This document shows positions 13,954 through 21,747 of a stretch of 37,023 bases of DNA, in pieces. Location of the stretch: positions 1 through 37,023 of IMG/VR virus record IMGVR_UViG_3300042295_000748. One strand, given 5' to 3'. A program made the position numbers and the translations under genes. Position 1 is the stretch's first letter. Each line of letters opens with the position of its first letter. Origin of the DNA: a virus (Duplodnaviria; Caudoviricetes). The notes below the pieces were generated by a model, which ran no database searches, was not told the DNA's origin, and saw only the letters and a list, made by a program, of their open reading frames with translations.

Positions 13954-14354
13954 TCCCCCAGATCACAGACTACCTGCTGCACAAGCTCCCGGACAGCTTC
14001 AAAGGCTGGACCCGTGAGGCCGTCGAGGACTACGTCATGTTCCACGCAGAGCAAGGCACGCTCAAGATCGCCACCCAGGACGACCATGTGGTCGGTGTGC
14101 TGGTAGGCTGGCGTCAGACGGGTCCAGAGCCTAAGGCCTGGGAGTGGCAGAAGTCCGACCCCAATGGCGACTACTGGTACTGGCATCAATTCGCCGCGGA
14201 TTGCGCGGTATTCGCCATGGCGGTGGCGGCTAAGTTCTTCCATGACCGACCGGAGGCTGCAATCCTCCCGGCTATCGGCTATCGCAACGGCAAACTGACC
14301 ATCTTCAAGAAAGGCTCGATGCCGATCTACCGGGTGGCCTCCAAAATGATATGA
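13950..14354 (+). CDS. Hypothetical protein, possibly GNAT-like virion assembly factor
   Basis: 134 aa just before the ejection-type genes, the position of P22 gp14 / T7 gp13; DDHVVGVLVGW strand pattern. Confidence 0.5.
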   Translation: MIPQITDYLLHKLPDSFKGWTREAVEDYVMFHAEQGTLKIATQDDHVVGVLVGWRQTGPEPKAWEWQKSDPNGDYWYWHQFAADCAVFAMAVAAKFFHDRPEAAILPAIGYRNGKLTIFKKGSMPIYRVASKMI

Positions 14355-15172
14355 CAGTCGACGCACCAGCACCACGCAACTACGCCCAAGAGACCGCGGA
14401 CACGCTTCGCACCCAGCTCGAGCTGGCACCCGAGCGATACGCTGCGGAGGCTCAGTTCGCGCCTAGGTATCAGGCACTGCAGCTCGACCTACTGCGCCAG
14501 GCTACTCCCGAGCTCCTGGCACTCTACCGCGATCAGATCGCGCCCACCATGGGCGAGGTCGAGGCGGCCGCCCGCTCCCGCTCCCGGGCCGGTGACATTG
14601 CCGACATTGCGCGGCTCGGCCCTCAAGCCCGCGAGGCTATGCGCGGTGCAGCCCCTGAGCAGACCCAGATCGCCGACATCCTTGCCCAGAACGCGACCTC
14701 CAATCTCCTTGCCGGCTCCCGGCTGACCCCGGAGCAGCAGCGGATGGCGCAGCAGCAGGCCCGCGTAGCCTCTTCGGCCCGTGGCATGGCCCAGGGACCG
14801 CAGGCTGCCTTTCAGGAAGCCCTGCGCTCCCAGCTCATGGGCGCAGGTATTCAACAGCAGCGCCAGCAGCAGGCCATGGGTGCGTTGCAGGCCGGCCAGG
14901 GCGTCTACGGCGACGTGTTCCAGCAGGTGCTCGGGCGTCCCTCACAGGCCTTCGCCGGTTCTCAAGGTTTCCTCGGGCAGGCGCAGGGCTTCAACCCGGG
15001 CCAACTCTTCAACCCAGAGAGCGCCTACGCTGCAAACCTGTTTGGCGGAAACCAGCAGACCCAGATGGCGGCAAATGCTGCCGGGGCGTCTGCCACCTCG
15101 GGGCTTATCGGAGCCGGCCTTGGCGCAATCGGATCTATTGGCGGTGGTGCTCTGGCTGGTCGAGGTCGGTAA
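14351..15172 (+). CDS. Putative ejection (DNA transfer) protein 1
   Basis: A/Q-rich helical protein with Gly-rich hydrophobic C-terminus GLIGAGLGAIGSIGGG. Confidence 0.65.
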   Translation: MTVDAPAPRNYAQETADTLRTQLELAPERYAAEAQFAPRYQALQLDLLRQATPELLALYRDQIAPTMGEVEAAARSRSRAGDIADIARLGPQAREAMRGAAPEQTQIADILAQNATSNLLAGSRLTPEQQRMAQQQARVASSARGMAQGPQAAFQEALRSQLMGAGIQQQRQQQAMGALQAGQGVYGDVFQQVLGRPSQAFAGSQGFLGQAQGFNPGQLFNPESAYAANLFGGNQQTQMAANAAGASATSGLIGAGLGAIGSIGGGALAGRGR

Positions 15173-15184
15173 CTCTTAAAGAAT

Positions 15185-16714
15185 ATGGCTCAATACGGCT
15201 ATTCAGCAGGCTACCAGGGCGGCGGACCTTCCGCCGTGCCTTCCGGCTTCATCGAGGCCTACGCCCAGTCCGGCCGGAACATCGGCGCTGGTATCCAGCA
15301 GATCGGCAATGCCATCGGCGAGTCGCTGCAGCGCTATGGCCAGAACAAGCAGGAGAACGAGTTCCTGCAGACCCGGCTCGAATCGCTGGCCCCGTATTTG
15401 AACACCGTTGCCCAGAGCGGCAACATCATGGACAAGAACAGCGCGGAGTCGAAGCTGCTCGGCGACATCGAGAAGTTCTCGTCGATGTCCATCCCGCAGA
15501 AGAAGGCCACGCTGCTCAATGCCGAGTTCTTCCTAGATCGGGCCGACAAGCAGCGTGCGAGGGAGATTCAAGATATTCAGGCCGAGGCCGCCCGCTTTAA
15601 CCTGCAGACAGCGCAAGGTGCCGAGGCACGACGCCTTGGGCTCGAGCAGGCAATCTCTCAGGTTGCCCAGCTTCCGGCCACGCAGGAAGTCACAGTGCCC
15701 GCACCTCCGGCAATCATCAGCAGCAGCCTGAACATTCCCGCGGAGCAGCAGCCCTACACCCCGTTCTACCAGGTGCAGCAGATCCCGGGCGGCACAATCC
15801 AGCAGCCTCCGGCTCCGCAGGCTCCGCAAGGTCCGACCTTTGGCGGAATGCGCTTCGGCGGTGCCGATCAGTATACCATGGGCCTCGGGCGCAACATCAT
15901 GCCCATCCCGACTGGCACCAACCGCTCGCAGTTCACGCCTTCCGCACAAGTTCAGGCAGCCCCGCCTGCCGGTATCGCGCCCATCCCGCAGCGTGAGGTC
16001 CCGGCTTTCGAGTCGCAGCCCATCCAACGCACGGTTACCGAGACCCAGCCGGTCGGCTACCAGGACCGCTTCAAACAGGCGGTCGACGTGTTCCAGCGCC
16101 TAGGTGCTCCGATCAACCCGGATGCCATCAGGAGCGTGCTGGAGGCCACCGGAACGCCTCGGCCCATTCAGGTCGACACCCAGACTCTGCCCGGCGGCAT
16201 CACCGTGGTGCGTGCGGACGGCAAGGTGGATATCCTGCCTGCTCCCAAGATGGTCGAAGGCAAGGACCTGACCGAGGGGCAGTCCAACTCGCTGGGCTTT
16301 GCTTCGCGCATGATGCTCAACGAGGGCACGATCAATGACGTGGTGGGCCGCGGTTATCGCCCTGGTGGCCTAACTGAGTTTGGCTTCACCCCAGAGCGTC
16401 TGCGTTCCGACGACCGCAAGATCTACGACGCCGCCAAGGAAAACTGGATTGCTGCTGCCCTGCGCAAGGAGTCCGGTGCTGCCATCGGCAAGGACGAGTA
16501 TTCCGCCGCAGATCGTCAATACTTCCCGCAACCCGGCGACAGCGACAAGGTGCTCAAGCAGAAGGCAACCCTGCGCTCGACCGTCTTCAAGTCCATGAAG
16601 GCCGGCATCGGTCGGTTCGCTGACGACTACCTGCGCCAGATGGGCGTCGGTCAGGAAACCCAACCCCAAGGCGGCGTCCGTAAATACAATCCCGTCACGA
16701 AGCGCATCGAGTAA
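15185..16714 (+). CDS. Putative ejection protein 2
   Basis: IGAGIQQIGNAIG N-terminus, P/Q-rich middle, C-terminal LTEGQ...LRKESGAAI...YFPQPGDS domain. Confidence 0.65.
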   Translation: MAQYGYSAGYQGGGPSAVPSGFIEAYAQSGRNIGAGIQQIGNAIGESLQRYGQNKQENEFLQTRLESLAPYLNTVAQSGNIMDKNSAESKLLGDIEKFSSMSIPQKKATLLNAEFFLDRADKQRAREIQDIQAEAARFNLQTAQGAEARRLGLEQAISQVAQLPATQEVTVPAPPAIISSSLNIPAEQQPYTPFYQVQQIPGGTIQQPPAPQAPQGPTFGGMRFGGADQYTMGLGRNIMPIPTGTNRSQFTPSAQVQAAPPAGIAPIPQREVPAFESQPIQRTVTETQPVGYQDRFKQAVDVFQRLGAPINPDAIRSVLEATGTPRPIQVDTQTLPGGITVVRADGKVDILPAPKMVEGKDLTEGQSNSLGFASRMMLNEGTINDVVGRGYRPGGLTEFGFTPERLRSDDRKIYDAAKENWIAAALRKESGAAIGKDEYSAADRQYFPQPGDSDKVLKQKATLRSTVFKSMKAGIGRFADDYLRQMGVGQETQPQGGVRKYNPVTKRIE

Positions 16715-16716
16715 TT

Positions 16717-19700
16717 ATGCCATACCAGATCCAGGTCGGCTCTCAGGTTGTCGAGTTCCCTGATTCCGTTGGCCAGGATGAGGCCCAGCGGATTTTGTCC
16801 GAGCAGTTCCCAGCCACTGGCGAGGACATTGCCGGTGCCATGCAGGACCCGGCCTACAAGCCCTCGGTCGACGACTACCTCAAGTTCGAGCAGTACTCCA
16901 AGACCAAGCAGACCGACTGGATCAACACCATCGCGCAGTCGGTGGATGCTGCCGCCGGCCTGATCGGTGGCGCGATCTCCGAGGGGGCACAGGGTGCTGT
17001 TGCCAACCCGCTCAACTACATTGAAGGCGCAGCCCAAGGCACCCGGCAGCTCTACGGCCTGGTCGCACAGTCTCAGGACCCGGCCTCGCCGCTCTTCAAG
17101 TTCAAGGACCTCGTCGCAGGCACAGGCACCGCGGAGTCCCGCTACAATCAGTTCCTCGAGGCCCGCGACTTCGCCAACACCACCGCACGCCTCGAACGCG
17201 GCGAGGAAGGCATTGTTGTCCCGCCTGAATACACCAACCCGGAGTTTGTTCAGGGCGTGTCCATGATCCTTGACCCGACGCTGGCTCTCCCCGGTATCGG
17301 CGAGATCATCGGCGCAGGTAAGCTCGCCACCCGTGCTGTCGGCAAAGGCGCTCAACTCACCGGACGTGCCGTTGCCGGCGTTGCAATGCCTCTGGAACGC
17401 GTTGCAGGTGCTGCCGAGCGCATGACAGCGGAAGCACTTGGAATGGCTCCTGAGGCACTCCGTAACACCGCGGCGACTGCTGGTCTTGCCGGTGCCCTCG
17501 GAATTGCCCCGGAGGCCGCTGCCTTCGCTGCCATCCCCGCAGGTATCCGTACCGCACGCGAGGCCGGCGAGGCCCTGACCCGTGCCGGCGAGAACCTGAT
17601 GACCCAGCCTTCGCGCATCGGGCCTCTTGAGGCTATCGGGGCTGCCCCGGGTGCCAACCTGCGCCAGCGTATGCTCGGTGTGGTCGGGCAGTATGGTGGG
17701 GACGCTGCCTTGGATGCCTCGCTGCGGGGTATTGCCGGAGGAATCGAAGGCGCTGCAGTTGGTGCAGGCTTGGGCTTTTTGTCAGGCGGCGAGGAAGGTG
17801 CGGCCGCCGGCCTTGGATCTGGCCTTGCCCAGGGCGCAGCCGGTGCCCTCGGTGCCCGCGGCTTCGAGCGGCTCACAGGCAAAGCCGCCAAGGAGGCCCG
17901 TGCCGGCGACCTCGGGCGATTCATCGACGCCCAGCAGGATCCGACGACCAAGGCGCTGTTTGAGCGTGTCAGAGACCAACACGGCGTCGATACGGCCTCG
18001 GCACTGATGGACGTCGAAGGACTGGTCAAAGGTCGGTTTGGCGATGTTGACGTAAAGTACCTTTCAGACACTGACTTTGTTGATCAGTACAAGGGCCGTG
18101 CCCGTGGTGTTCAGGTTGAGATTGGAGACCGCCCGACCATTGTCATCAATGCCGACATCCTCGGAAAAGGCAAAGGCGACAGCCCGTTGTACACTCTCGG
18201 ACATGAGCTGTTCCATGCTCTCGAAAAGAGCGAGCAGCTCGCAGGCGGTGCAACTGAGATCAAGAACGCTCTTGTCGGACGCTGGGTTCAGGAAGGCGAC
18301 ATCACCCGCAAGCTGGCCGAGGGCGCTTTCAATGACGCCGAGATCGAGGCCCGCTTCAACCAGTACCGCGACAAATTGGGTGCTGGCAGCCCGGAGCGTG
18401 CCGACCAGCTCGCCCAGTACGACACCATCGACAAGAAAGCTGGCTATGTGGCCTCGGAGCTGGCCGCTGAACACTTTGCAGCACTGATTGCTGGTCAGAA
18501 GCCGGACGCCATGCTCAAGGGCTTCTCAGGCCTCACCAGACAGCTTCTGGATGCCGCACTGACGCAGAACGCCAGCAAGGCCATCGCAAACGCTGCTGCG
18601 TCGATTGAGCGCACGTTTGGCGTGAAGCCGACTGACTCAGTCCTGTTTCCGGATCTCAAGCAGGCCTCGCCTCAGGTGAATGCCATGCTGCGCGACTTGG
18701 TGCGTGCCCGTCGCAAGCTGGACGAGAAGATCATGCTCGATGACAGCCGCGGTGGCCGCGTGCTGAAGCCGGAGGACGTTTCCAACCCGTTGGCAGCAAA
18801 GGAACTGGTCGACCTTGGGTTGGCCGAGCAGATGCCCGATGGCAGCATCAGGAACCTTTCCAGCGAAGAGATCCGAGCACGCGACGACAAGGATTTGACC
18901 TCGTTGCGATCCATCACCGAGAAGATACCGGGGGCTCGGATGGTCGACGGTGAAATCACCGGCAGGTTCAGTCCGGATCAGCTCAGTGCCATCGAGCAAT
19001 CCCAGACGATCAGCTCTCGGATGAAGGACAAGATCCGAGCAGTCAATCTGGCAATCGAGAACGGCAACAGCCTATTCGTCACCTACTTCGCCGCACTTCG
19101 ACGAGTGAGGAACAAGCTCACCAAGAAGTACTCTCCGAAGTACGACAGTGGCATTCGTGTCAGCGAGCGCGAGTTCTCTCCGTACAGCTTCAAGATCACA
19201 AAGGCTGACAACCCGGTGGTCAACGCCATCGACATCACCAAGGTCCGAAACGAACTCAGCAAGCTGCTGAAGAAGGATGGCAGCATCGGTGGCCTGTGGA
19301 GCAACACAGATGGGTTTATGACCGATCTGGCGAGGTACTTCACCAACCTCGACCAGAAGGAAGGTGCTCGCCGTTCTGCGGAGATCTTCGGAGTTGAGAA
19401 GGCCAAGTTCCTCGGTGACTTCGTGGGCGCTGCTGAGAAAGGCGGAAGCAAGTTCGTTCGCAGTTTCCGGCTGGATCGTGTTGGCTCGATGTCTCCGATG
19501 GACTTCAAAGCGAAGTTTTCCGAGGAAGCCTATCAGCTCTCGAAGCAGCGCTGGATGCCTGCCGAGACCATCGGCGACAAATCGGTCATCAACTCCGACG
19601 AGGGCTACCGCATCATCAGCGGTGCCAAGCACAAGCTCTACAGTCCCGATGGAAAGCTCATCGGAATCTACGACACCCAAACCCAAGCAGAAAGGAAAGC

Positions 19701-21747
19701 AGATGCCACTCAAGCAAGGCTACAGCCAGAAGTCGATCAGCAGCAACGTGTCCCGGGAGATGAAGTCCGGCAAACCGCAGAAGCAGGCGGTGGCAATCGC
19801 GCTCTCGGTGGCGCGGAAGGCGGCCAAGAAGGCCGGCAAGAACTCGGGACGGTTCGACAAGCGGGGGATGTAAGGTTCATGCCGGACGGCACAAGCGATG
19901 GGCTTGCCGTTCTGGATGATGTGCTGAAGCTAGAGCTTCCGCGTAGACCCAAGGTCATCGACATTGCCAACGCATTCCAGAATATGTTCGGGAAGGCGAT
20001 TGAGTACCGCAAATCGAACCCGCAGGACAACGCTCGGTTGGTCAACCTGTTGGTTCAAGAGATCGACCGTGCCGTCAAGCTGCACCCCGAGGCCAAGGGT
20101 TGGTACGACGAGAACGTCAAACTGACGATGGACGTGATGCGGGATCTGGACCCGGATCTGGCCAAGCCCGAGAACGACTTCATCTTCAAGGCCATCCTGG
20201 CGGCTACGTCGGATGGCAACAAGGTAGGCCCACAGTTTCAACAGACTTGGAAGGAGTACAGCAACTGGAAGAACACCGGGGAGATTTCTGGTGAGTTCGT
20301 GTCCGGTGATCGCATTGAGAACATCCAGACCAACCTGGAAATGCTCAACGAGTTCATCAAGGACATCGGCTGGGAGAAGACCAAGGACTTCATGGTGCAG
20401 AAGGGCACAGTGAAGGATTTGCGCCAGGCCTTGGTCGACGTCTTCGGTTGGACCAAAAAGCAGGCCGCCGGTGTGGGATCTTCTGAGCGTGTCGACGAGG
20501 TGGTTCCGTTTGCGGTAGTGCTCGGTCCCAAGCTGGGGTCGTTCTTCAACAACCTGTACGGCGACTTCTCATCGGTGACCATGGACCGCTGGTTCATGCG
20601 CACACTGGGACGCCTGACCGGCACCCAGGTGGCACCGCTCTCAAAGGCTAAGCTGCGCGAGATGCGCAACAACCTGCGCGATGCAGTCGCCAGGCTGACC
20701 CCGTCTGAGTTTGAGATGCTTGGAGTCAAGCGTGGCGATCTTAAGGGCACGTCCATCGACGGTGCTGCCACAACCATCTCCGGCAGGTTCTCCAAGAAAG
20801 CCCTGCGTGAGACGGCTAAAAAATCCTCTGAGGCCGGTCAATCTGCGCTCGAGGAAACAAGAAAGTTTGCAAACGCTCTAAAAAAGGGCTTGAATCCCCT
20901 AGTCGAGGCTCCGGTCGATGGCACCCATCGGCGCTGGATTCGTGAGCGTATCGCAGAGGTTCAGTCGGAACTGCGTTCCCGCGGCATTGAGCTGGAGAAC
21001 GCGGACCTGCAGGCCGTGCTGTGGTATCTCGAAAAAGAACTCTATGAAAAACTCAACTACCGCAGCAAATCAGGAGAGTCAGACTATGCTTCCGCAGCCT
21101 CCTCCCTCTATCAGTCAGTGGCTGGACGACCGTCTGACGTCTATGCAGGAGGAACAGGACGAGTACGCGCAATCGGGAGCACTGGAGGCAGCGAAGGAAT
21201 GGGCGCAGGCCAAGCGAGCCAAGCGGCTGGGCCTGAAGTAGGCAGCCAGCGCTTCATGCCGGTGGATGAAAACACCGGCCTACCTCTCAATCCTGACAAG
21301 ACTGTTACCGTCTATCACCACACAAACAAGACGGCAGCAGAAGCAATCAGGCGCACCGGAGTGCTCAAATCAGCCGGTGAGCCTGACGTGTATGTGACTA
21401 CGGAAAAGTCCCCAACAACCGGCTATGGTGATGAGGTTGTTGCTATCAAAGTTGATCCCAAAAAACTGCAGATCGACGATCAGTTTCCTGATGGAAGGAC
21501 TGACTTCAGATTGTCAGTGGGCAAGCCTGGCGGATCAATGAAGGTCGCTGTTGATTCCAGTGAGCGCTTCATGCCTGTGCCCGACTCCTCAATGCCCGGC
21601 GCCTACTCCTTCCCCGGTGGCTACCGGGCACTCCCGGGCAAGGCCAAGGGCAGTCTCCGCCTCTACGGCCCCGCAGGCAGCCTGATCGGCATCGCAGCCA
21701 GCCTTGACGAAGCGCAACGCATCATCCGAAAGAAGTCCAAGCAATGA
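16717..21747 (+). CDS. Large ejection-type polyvalent protein (zincin peptidase, HhH-glycosylase-like and ART-like domains)
   Basis: 1676 aa; G/A-rich hydrophobic region, HELFH at 18202-18216 with downstream SELAAE, four R[FW]MP motifs, GPKLGSF..N..VTMDRW..LQAVLW domain, TVYHHT..VYVT..YG domain. Confidence 0.8.
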   Translation: MPYQIQVGSQVVEFPDSVGQDEAQRILSEQFPATGEDIAGAMQDPAYKPSVDDYLKFEQYSKTKQTDWINTIAQSVDAAAGLIGGAISEGAQGAVANPLNYIEGAAQGTRQLYGLVAQSQDPASPLFKFKDLVAGTGTAESRYNQFLEARDFANTTARLERGEEGIVVPPEYTNPEFVQGVSMILDPTLALPGIGEIIGAGKLATRAVGKGAQLTGRAVAGVAMPLERVAGAAERMTAEALGMAPEALRNTAATAGLAGALGIAPEAAAFAAIPAGIRTAREAGEALTRAGENLMTQPSRIGPLEAIGAAPGANLRQRMLGVVGQYGGDAALDASLRGIAGGIEGAAVGAGLGFLSGGEEGAAAGLGSGLAQGAAGALGARGFERLTGKAAKEARAGDLGRFIDAQQDPTTKALFERVRDQHGVDTASALMDVEGLVKGRFGDVDVKYLSDTDFVDQYKGRARGVQVEIGDRPTIVINADILGKGKGDSPLYTLGHELFHALEKSEQLAGGATEIKNALVGRWVQEGDITRKLAEGAFNDAEIEARFNQYRDKLGAGSPERADQLAQYDTIDKKAGYVASELAAEHFAALIAGQKPDAMLKGFSGLTRQLLDAALTQNASKAIANAAASIERTFGVKPTDSVLFPDLKQASPQVNAMLRDLVRARRKLDEKIMLDDSRGGRVLKPEDVSNPLAAKELVDLGLAEQMPDGSIRNLSSEEIRARDDKDLTSLRSITEKIPGARMVDGEITGRFSPDQLSAIEQSQTISSRMKDKIRAVNLAIENGNSLFVTYFAALRRVRNKLTKKYSPKYDSGIRVSEREFSPYSFKITKADNPVVNAIDITKVRNELSKLLKKDGSIGGLWSNTDGFMTDLARYFTNLDQKEGARRSAEIFGVEKAKFLGDFVGAAEKGGSKFVRSFRLDRVGSMSPMDFKAKFSEEAYQLSKQRWMPAETIGDKSVINSDEGYRIISGAKHKLYSPDGKLIGIYDTQTQAERKADATQARLQPEVDQQQRVPGDEVRQTAEAGGGNRALGGAEGGQEGRQELGTVRQAGDVRFMPDGTSDGLAVLDDVLKLELPRRPKVIDIANAFQNMFGKAIEYRKSNPQDNARLVNLLVQEIDRAVKLHPEAKGWYDENVKLTMDVMRDLDPDLAKPENDFIFKAILAATSDGNKVGPQFQQTWKEYSNWKNTGEISGEFVSGDRIENIQTNLEMLNEFIKDIGWEKTKDFMVQKGTVKDLRQALVDVFGWTKKQAAGVGSSERVDEVVPFAVVLGPKLGSFFNNLYGDFSSVTMDRWFMRTLGRLTGTQVAPLSKAKLREMRNNLRDAVARLTPSEFEMLGVKRGDLKGTSIDGAATTISGRFSKKALRETAKKSSEAGQSALEETRKFANALKKGLNPLVEAPVDGTHRRWIRERIAEVQSELRSRGIELENADLQAVLWYLEKELYEKLNYRSKSGESDYASAASSLYQSVAGRPSDVYAGGTGRVRAIGSTGGSEGMGAGQASQAAGPEVGSQRFMPVDENTGLPLNPDKTVTVYHHTNKTAAEAIRRTGVLKSAGEPDVYVTTEKSPTTGYGDEVVAIKVDPKKLQIDDQFPDGRTDFRLSVGKPGGSMKVAVDSSERFMPVPDSSMPGAYSFPGGYRALPGKAKGSLRLYGPAGSLIGIAASLDEAQRIIRKKSKQ
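19703..19873 (+). CDS. Nested +1-frame gene: small basic MPLK..KQAVAIAL protein (56 aa)
   Basis: MPLKQGYSQKSISSNVSREMKSGKPQKQAVAIALSVARK...; 51 of 56 codons end in G/C (hand count); AAGGA 6 nt upstream of the ATG. Confidence 0.75.
   Translation: MPLKQGYSQKSISSNVSREMKSGKPQKQAVAIALSVARKAAKKAGKNSGRFDKRGM
21044..21241 (+). CDS. Nested +1-frame ORF (65 aa; alternative start 21086, 51 aa)
   Basis: ...QWLDDRLTSMQEEQDEYAQSGALEAAKEWAQAKRAKRLGLK; G/C-ending codons favour this frame over the host frame; AGGAG at 21072-21076 precedes ATG 21086. Confidence 0.55.
   Translation: MKNSTTAANQESQTMLPQPPPSISQWLDDRLTSMQEEQDEYAQSGALEAAKEWAQAKRAKRLGLK

Follow-up and report, generated by a model that had tools for sequence, protein, structure and literature searches.

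Fully nested same-strand genes are known in phages, lambda Rz1 within Rz among them, and in most known cases of nesting in phages a new frame has arisen within an old gene. The same holds for phiX174, in which E lies wholly inside D on the same strand and the inner E is the new frame (PMC8227390). The closest published phage case to the locus described below is the ShiLan domain, an HNH endonuclease encoded out of frame within an actinophage DNA methylase, where a complete out-of-frame gene sits in a phage host gene whose own frame continues across it, meeting no stop, and renders it as a passenger loop; the ShiLan element is selfish, homing and patchy in its presence (PMC11855218). Closest in logic are two cases from eukaryotic viruses, the polymerase spacer of hepatitis B virus (HBV) and the linker over the gene for the movement protein in apple stem grooving virus (ASGV). 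In both, a linker overprints an older gene under asymmetric selection and joins domains into one polyprotein, the order of events in HBV having been deduced from codon usage (PMC8227390). The present work concerns a small open reading frame (ORF) of 56 codons, with a match to the phage protein family phrog_2423, that lies inside the 1676-amino-acid (aa) giant gene of a tailed phage, IMG/VR record IMGVR_UViG_3300042295_000748. The whole 37,023-nucleotide (nt) stretch analysed is referred to as the window.

The reading preferred here, in which considerable confidence is placed, is a dual-coding architecture with an older, maintained inner gene and a new, constrained outer linker. Relative to phiX174 E the ages are exchanged, the inner gene being old and the outer stretch new; relative to HBV and ASGV, the carrier is a tailed phage and the un-nested state is seen in a sister group. 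Unlike ShiLan, the phrog_2423 gene is non-mobile, widespread and fixed in all relatives examined, its free ancestral position is visible beside the same giant, and the host frame (that of the giant) is purged of Cys and Trp. A homing insertion of the ShiLan type was considered and rejected: the inner frame encodes a basic helical hairpin of no nuclease family, and in place of a patchy presence the nested gene occurs in all loci retrieved by an upstream-only query and in 119 of 120 giants. No description of nested genes in ejection, internal virion or polyvalent proteins was found in the searches made of open-access literature.

The giant consists of a constant N-terminal part of ~945 aa, a first repeat domain (CTD1), a linker, variable cassettes and, at the end, a second copy of the repeat domain, CTD2, which over 52 aa is 33% identical to CTD1. 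The small ORF lies wholly within this larger same-strand ORF (16717-21747), in its +1 frame, and spans host residues 996-1053. Its TAA straddles two host codons, taking two bases from the end of a Val codon and one from the beginning of the Arg codon in an RFMP motif. The first-pass annotation, made from the letters of the window, had described a phage gene fully nested in the +1 frame at this place, a TAA overlapping the RFMP Arg codon, 51 of 56 codons ending in G or C against about 26 of 57 in the host frame, and a host reading as a G/Q/E/R-rich linker. The ORF, peptide and frame were reproduced, a recount of the third positions returned the same figures (51/56 and 26/57), and the linker was found to be rich in G, Q, R, A and E. 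The third-position G/C content (GC3) of the nested ORF is moderately above the codon-usage expectation for its peptide (mean 43.8/56, P = 0.009), and part of the excess arises because T is kept out of the first codon position of the host frame. The real evidence for a nested gene is homology together with the substitution pattern across relatives, not the open frame or the GC3.

Relatives were retrieved with a host-frame query (53 loci) and with an alignment ending before the overlap (62 loci, 10 of them new records). Four loci whose records were duplicated by later ones (L001, L002, L003 and L017) were left out before counting, as was a contig that ends inside the gene (L122, open as far as it is present). 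The final set comprised 64 loci, the window and 63 others, on 63 records in total, L105 and L117 sharing one record. In all 64 the ATG is present, no internal stop occurs, the stop falls at a constant place and the giant frame is open; the sole length variant of the overlap is an in-frame deletion of 12 nt (171 nt in 35 loci, 159 nt in 29). Stops in the +1 frame of close relatives, which would have counted against the nested gene, were thus found in 0/64. Every locus retrieved by the upstream-only query carries the nested gene, and within the relative set the upstream region of the giant drops to about 30% identity. Among the database giants the linker is carried by 119 of 120 (118 by pattern, 1 by eye), the remaining one ending before the linker. 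That the arrangement is an artefact of chimeric assembly, or that the element is removed by RNA or protein splicing, is barely credible: Logan contigs of the likely source run are interrupted near the region, but the same arrangement recurs on 63 separately assembled records and in the 119 giants, and no joints were seen in the contigs of four runs, two of DNA and two from RNA libraries. Two RNA-library contigs of relatives span the overlap, which as contigs are no proof of transcription. The nested gene is the sole phrog_2423 copy in the window genome and in four of five other complete records; the fifth has two, both nested. The 44-kb record shared by L105 and L117 (G005) carries two different nested copies and probably joins two related phages in a chimeric assembly. 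The GenBank phage set held no relative of the junction region of the giant, and consequently no cultured member or host was identified.

The substitution pattern differs sharply between the two frames. Over the overlap, the ratio of nonsynonymous to synonymous substitution rates (dN/dS) was 0.15 in the nested frame and 3.2 in the host frame (39 ungapped codons, 43 haplotypes), and the values immediately upstream were 0.11 in the host frame and 2.0 in +1 (50 codons); the ratios were computed from pairs, which lack independence. On a tree of 54 haplotypes, parsimony placed 46, 20 and 127 changes at nested codon positions 1, 2 and 3, with 45 amino-acid changes in the nested protein against 163 in the host protein. 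All three stop codons are used at the nested end (TAA 35, TGA 15, TAG 14), with eight different next host residues, and host Val codons elsewhere yield a +1 stop in 651 of 5351 cases (12%). The start and stop positions are constant while the downstream cassettes of the giant vary. The nested frame is under purifying selection with a conserved start and stop, and the earlier suggestion that it is still maintained is borne out by this per-frame comparison across relatives. The idea of a dead relic, retained solely for the linker sequence that the giant needs, is extremely improbable: it is contradicted by the dN/dS of 0.15, the amino-acid change falls mostly on the host protein, nested third positions hold the variation, and neither start nor stop moves.

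The start site is also conserved. The ATG is present in 64/64 loci, and the host-silent change able to destroy it never occurs. Each of the six host codons before it is a minority codon (11-22%) ending in A or G, and all are nearly fixed in 43 loci; an AAGGA motif lies upstream of the ATG in the subclade of the window only. No promoter-like site was found in 18500-20300. The ordinary genes of the phage are, by inspection, mostly preceded by A-rich or A/C-rich sequence without a clear Shine-Dalgarno motif; such gene starts are a hint about the host group. Under the preferred reading, ribosomes would start inside the giant mRNA at this A-rich, weakly folded site. The same six rare, nearly invariant codons could instead be the signal of a programmed +1 frameshift that enters the small frame and yields a shorter giant isoform with a basic tail. 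This is very unlikely, as an invariant ATG is needless for a fusion, the two subclades differ upstream yet share the ATG position, and free homologues begin at the same Met.

The outer frame is constrained as well, a feature that the first-pass annotation had not noted. It is open in all 64 loci and the one indel is in frame, in keeping with selection on this reading too; the corresponding frame is open in only 9 of 73 free homologues. Synonymous third-position T that would make a stop in the giant occurs at 0 of 665 nested positions and at 166 of 703 in free genes; the corresponding figures are 0/346 and 173/431 where the giant would gain Cys, and 0/190 and 58/155 where it would gain Trp. Third-position T is tolerated where the giant gains Tyr (19/167). 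Stops, Cys and Trp are excluded from the giant linker. Since both readings are kept by selection, this one stretch of DNA likely makes two proteins, a reading drawn from the pattern of substitutions. Translation of the small gene would begin at its own ATG and yield a basic helical protein bound for the phage head, and the giant would read the same bases as a new hydrophilic linker that joins its constant N-terminal part to interchangeable cassettes.

The origin of the nesting is indicated by a sister group, whose giants are 23% identical to those of the ingroup over about 940 columns and have the same layout of CTD1, cassettes and CTD2. There the linker after CTD1 is native, usually short and without a nested gene, and the small gene stands free behind the giant, 1-31 nt after its stop, in 8 of the 10 metagenome loci with a complete 3' end (12 examined) and in 3 of 4 viral records; in none of them is it nested. 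Because it is free in the sister group, where the linker is short and native, the small gene is taken as the older frame. By distribution, the criterion applied to overlapping frames in PMC8227390, and by this free state, the small frame is judged ancestral and the linker reading new. The earlier proposal of an ancestral nested frame is in accord with this, the gene being free in most homologues as well as in the sister group.

Recombination would have moved the small gene from behind CTD2 to behind CTD1. On the favoured route, a unit of repeat domain, stop and small gene would have replaced CTD1, and the stop would then have been lost. In the sister locus L195 the spacing from the CTD2 stop to the free ATG equals that of the ingroup junction, and the stop falls on an ingroup Lys codon. 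Alternatively, the small gene may have entered the short native linker behind CTD1 by direct insertion, by way of a short sequence shared at its start codon, with no stop ever lost. This is a real possibility, to be taken seriously, as CTD1 of the sister locus L198 ends in Asp-Tyr-Ala codons that hold an ATG in the register of the nested start, and the sister CTD1 end KAQSDY resembles the ingroup KAEKDY. Against direct insertion stand the L195 spacing and its stop position, and the fact that +1 ORFs with ribosome-binding-like motifs close other cassettes too, which suggests capture of units composed of a domain plus a downstream gene. For the latter reason, the route through stop loss is slightly favoured.

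A homology search with the 56-aa peptide gave a match to phrog_2423 (E 4.9e-20, profile positions 1-45 of 52), and genes of PB1, RSB1 and phiEap-2 match the same profile. The family is large, with 1810 homologous proteins and 346 GenBank phage records, mostly Pseudomonas phages, and the peptide itself has already been called as a gene in databases, mostly on short contigs; the first-pass annotation had expected standard gene callers to miss it. The 80 IMG/VR loci of the small gene divide into 5 with the gene nested in a giant ORF and 75 without such nesting. The first-pass annotation had likened the peptide to widespread, small, basic, DUF6496-like phage proteins that are normally encoded as free genes. 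The widespread basic family and the free state were both recovered, phrog_2423 being that family; the identity with DUF6496 (PF20106) was rejected, at 15.2 bits against a gathering threshold of 24 (E 0.028, residues 24-44 only). A look-alike cluster in the Atlas, with 31% DUF6496 at 0.93, is a lead only. In L077 (6001-6432) a phrog_2423-like N-terminus is joined in frame to a longer ORF of 143 aa; this fused ORF was left out of the free set.

The small protein is strongly basic (isoelectric point, pI, 11.2; 14 K/R against 2 D/E), and its predicted fold places helices at 9-21 and 26-43 (predicted local distance difference test score, pLDDT, 81). With this model, Foldseek gave no match at E ≤ 0.001 and VIA-align a best Z of 5.4, among unrelated helical hairpins; a sequence search of the PDB gave a best E of 0.91. 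PB1 ORF19, SCUT-S1 ORF22 and RSB1 ORF47 share with the nested gene the family, the start Met and the QAVAIA helix, and differ in being free genes, often among head genes; PB1 ORF19 comes after minor head genes. In 54 scanned neighbours of free copies, picked by hand from 119, there were 23 head, packaging or connector proteins and 18 without a match. ORF22 of the Pbunavirus SCUT-S1, 46% identical to the nested protein over 48 aa, has been reported in ghost particles that had released their DNA, at 77% coverage by 7 peptides (PMC6521218, Table 1). Pa193 gp21 (7.4 kDa, Mascot 288), assigned as a homologue by size and gene order only, has been reported in mature virions (PMC11456595). Given these mass-spectrometric reports for Pbunavirus homologues, the small protein may well be a basic head accessory protein, although the chances are about even. 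That it binds packaged DNA or the inner capsid is, in turn, a guess that could fall either way, drawn from the charge, the fold, the head-gene neighbours and the virion proteomics of homologues. The protein could also be real and non-structural, retained inside the giant gene for the sake of co-expression and acting, say, on the giant or its cassettes as a chaperone or inhibitor, and its linkage to the giant in both ingroup and sister group fits that idea. This is unlikely, since most free homologues adjoin unrelated genes, with head, packaging or connector genes among the scanned neighbours as counted above, since the small gene is kept while the cassettes change, and since the Pbunavirus homologues are present in virions.

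Several observations weigh against the dual-coding reading or parts of it. Random synonymous recodings of the host peptide keep the +1 frame open for 56 codons in 74% of cases, so that an open frame at the overlap is unsurprising in itself, and this chance openness also speaks for a dead relic; recodings with an open +1 frame plus start and stop make up 1.4%. The 64 loci share one origin and many are near-identical, and per-sequence counts consequently overstate independence. At the nested start, the AAGGA motif is missing in 19 of 64 loci and the weak folding is not significant (z +1.5). As to the linker, T is also rare where the giant would gain Ser (2/367), and counted per site it occurs at 2 of 26 possible nested sites and at 16 of 32 upstream; a founder effect, common ancestry or codon preference may contribute to the avoidance of T. 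The small gene is absent behind the giant in three sister phages (L199, L294 and L295), where the next gene follows directly, and since it is missing at its usual position it is either dispensable there or located elsewhere. A tree of 24 repeat domains gave four clades whose order does not tell whether the ingroup CTD1 derives from the CTD1 or the CTD2 of the sister group, and lends no decision on direct insertion. Finally, the giant has no Pfam or PHROG match.

The remaining features of the window are collected in Table 1. As a virus record of 37 kb the window looks complete; it encodes an SU10-type major capsid protein together with a primase, a helicase and a terminase, and the phage is found in lake-water metagenomes. 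The giant is the last of three consecutive genes (14351-21747) of rising size, 273, 509 and 1676 aa, which lie between tail-tube genes and the tail fibre and encode 0 Cys each; across the 64 giants, Cys accounts for 0 of 114,247 residues. The order of the three genes presumably resembles that of T7 gp14-16. A lack of cysteine has been reported for Schitoviridae ejection proteins (PMC11445570). Judged from gene order and the lack of cysteine, 14351-21747 is likely an ejection-protein operon and the giant a likely ejection protein; no matching family or fold was found for the giant. A model of residues 746-1511 was too poor for use (pLDDT 37.8), with the linker as coil, as is much else.

Table 1. 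Positions of the nested gene, the giant gene and associated features (window positions unless a locus is given)
Feature	Positions	Strand	Remarks
Two cysteine-free genes, likely smaller ejection proteins	14351..16714	+	273 and 509 aa
Giant cysteine-free gene, likely largest ejection (internal virion) protein with polyvalent cassettes	16717..21747	+	1676 aa
CTD1, first copy of the ~52-aa repeat domain	19549..19701	+	Begins with RWMP, aa 945
Likely translation-initiation region of the nested gene	19681..19702	+	A-rich, weakly folded, near-invariant minority host codons
G/Q/R/E-rich linker of the giant over the small gene	19702..19872	+	Host aa 996-1052
Nested gene for a 56-aa basic protein	19703..19873	+	phrog_2423; pI 11.2; predicted two-helix hairpin
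Variable cassette region	19873..21564	+	Two modules, with RFMP openings at aa 1053 and aa 1512
Second candidate nested +1 ORF	21086..21241	+	51 aa; AGGAG upstream; linker ending first cassette
CTD2, terminal repeat-domain copy	21565..21747	+	From RFMP at aa 1617
Further +1 ATG ORFs	L083 9114-9305; L101 9111-9311; L107 4173-4349; L120 8991-9146

The part of the giant downstream of the linker measures 234-1567 aa and falls into 24 module clusters, with 36 architectures in 57 complete loci. Polyvalent phage proteins, described as packaged and injected, are likewise encoded by giant multidomain genes among virion genes and have variable cassettes; the excerpt of that source mentions neither nested genes nor the word 'linker' (PMC5512222). 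Across the relatives of the window, several disparate effector domains occur in variable architecture, and ART-PolyVal was recognised in the relative L003 at 119.8 bits, above the cut-off. The cassettes of the window itself had no Pfam match. RFMP, RYMP and RFQP motifs recur at module junctions, in the window (19873-21576) and in relatives; together with the varied architectures they suggest a recombination hotspot or a linker code.

A second +1 ORF, at the end of the first cassette, stops just before the RFMP at aa 1512 and has counterparts in L018 (7372-7527) and in L311-L314. In 10/10 carriers of that cassette it is intact, and the distant L313 and L314, though using a later ATG, retain both its pattern and its stop position. 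Its nonsynonymous and synonymous differences (pN/pS) are symmetric between the frames, 0.063/0.109 and 0.065/0.103 (6 haplotypes), no PHROG match was found below E 0.1, and only 12 close homologues exist; for these reasons the ORF stays a candidate. Two further families of +1 ATG ORFs (51-121 aa) lie over G/Q/R/E-rich stretches of other cassettes, several with GGAG upstream. The database proteins P0245-P0251 resemble a join of one of these families with the second ORF of the window. It is tentatively proposed, with a little less than even confidence, that the giants grow by capturing units of a domain plus a downstream small gene, that their linkers would be systematically second-frame, and that the giant would amount to a hidden, reshufflable operon. 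If so, each swappable cassette may carry a hidden small protein of its own, as in the phrog_2423 gene, the ORF at 21086-21241 and the two +1 families.

At this locus a growing polyprotein appears to have taken in an old, widespread gene, and the sister group shows how things stood before the event. It would provide a clean natural test of how an overlap originates by read-through and how two frames split selection between them: the inner frame preserves its amino-acid sequence, and stops, cysteine and tryptophan are barred from the outer. A presence/absence analysis built from called genes only could score phrog_2423 as lost in such phages, and apparent linkers of giant phage proteins can conceal real genes.

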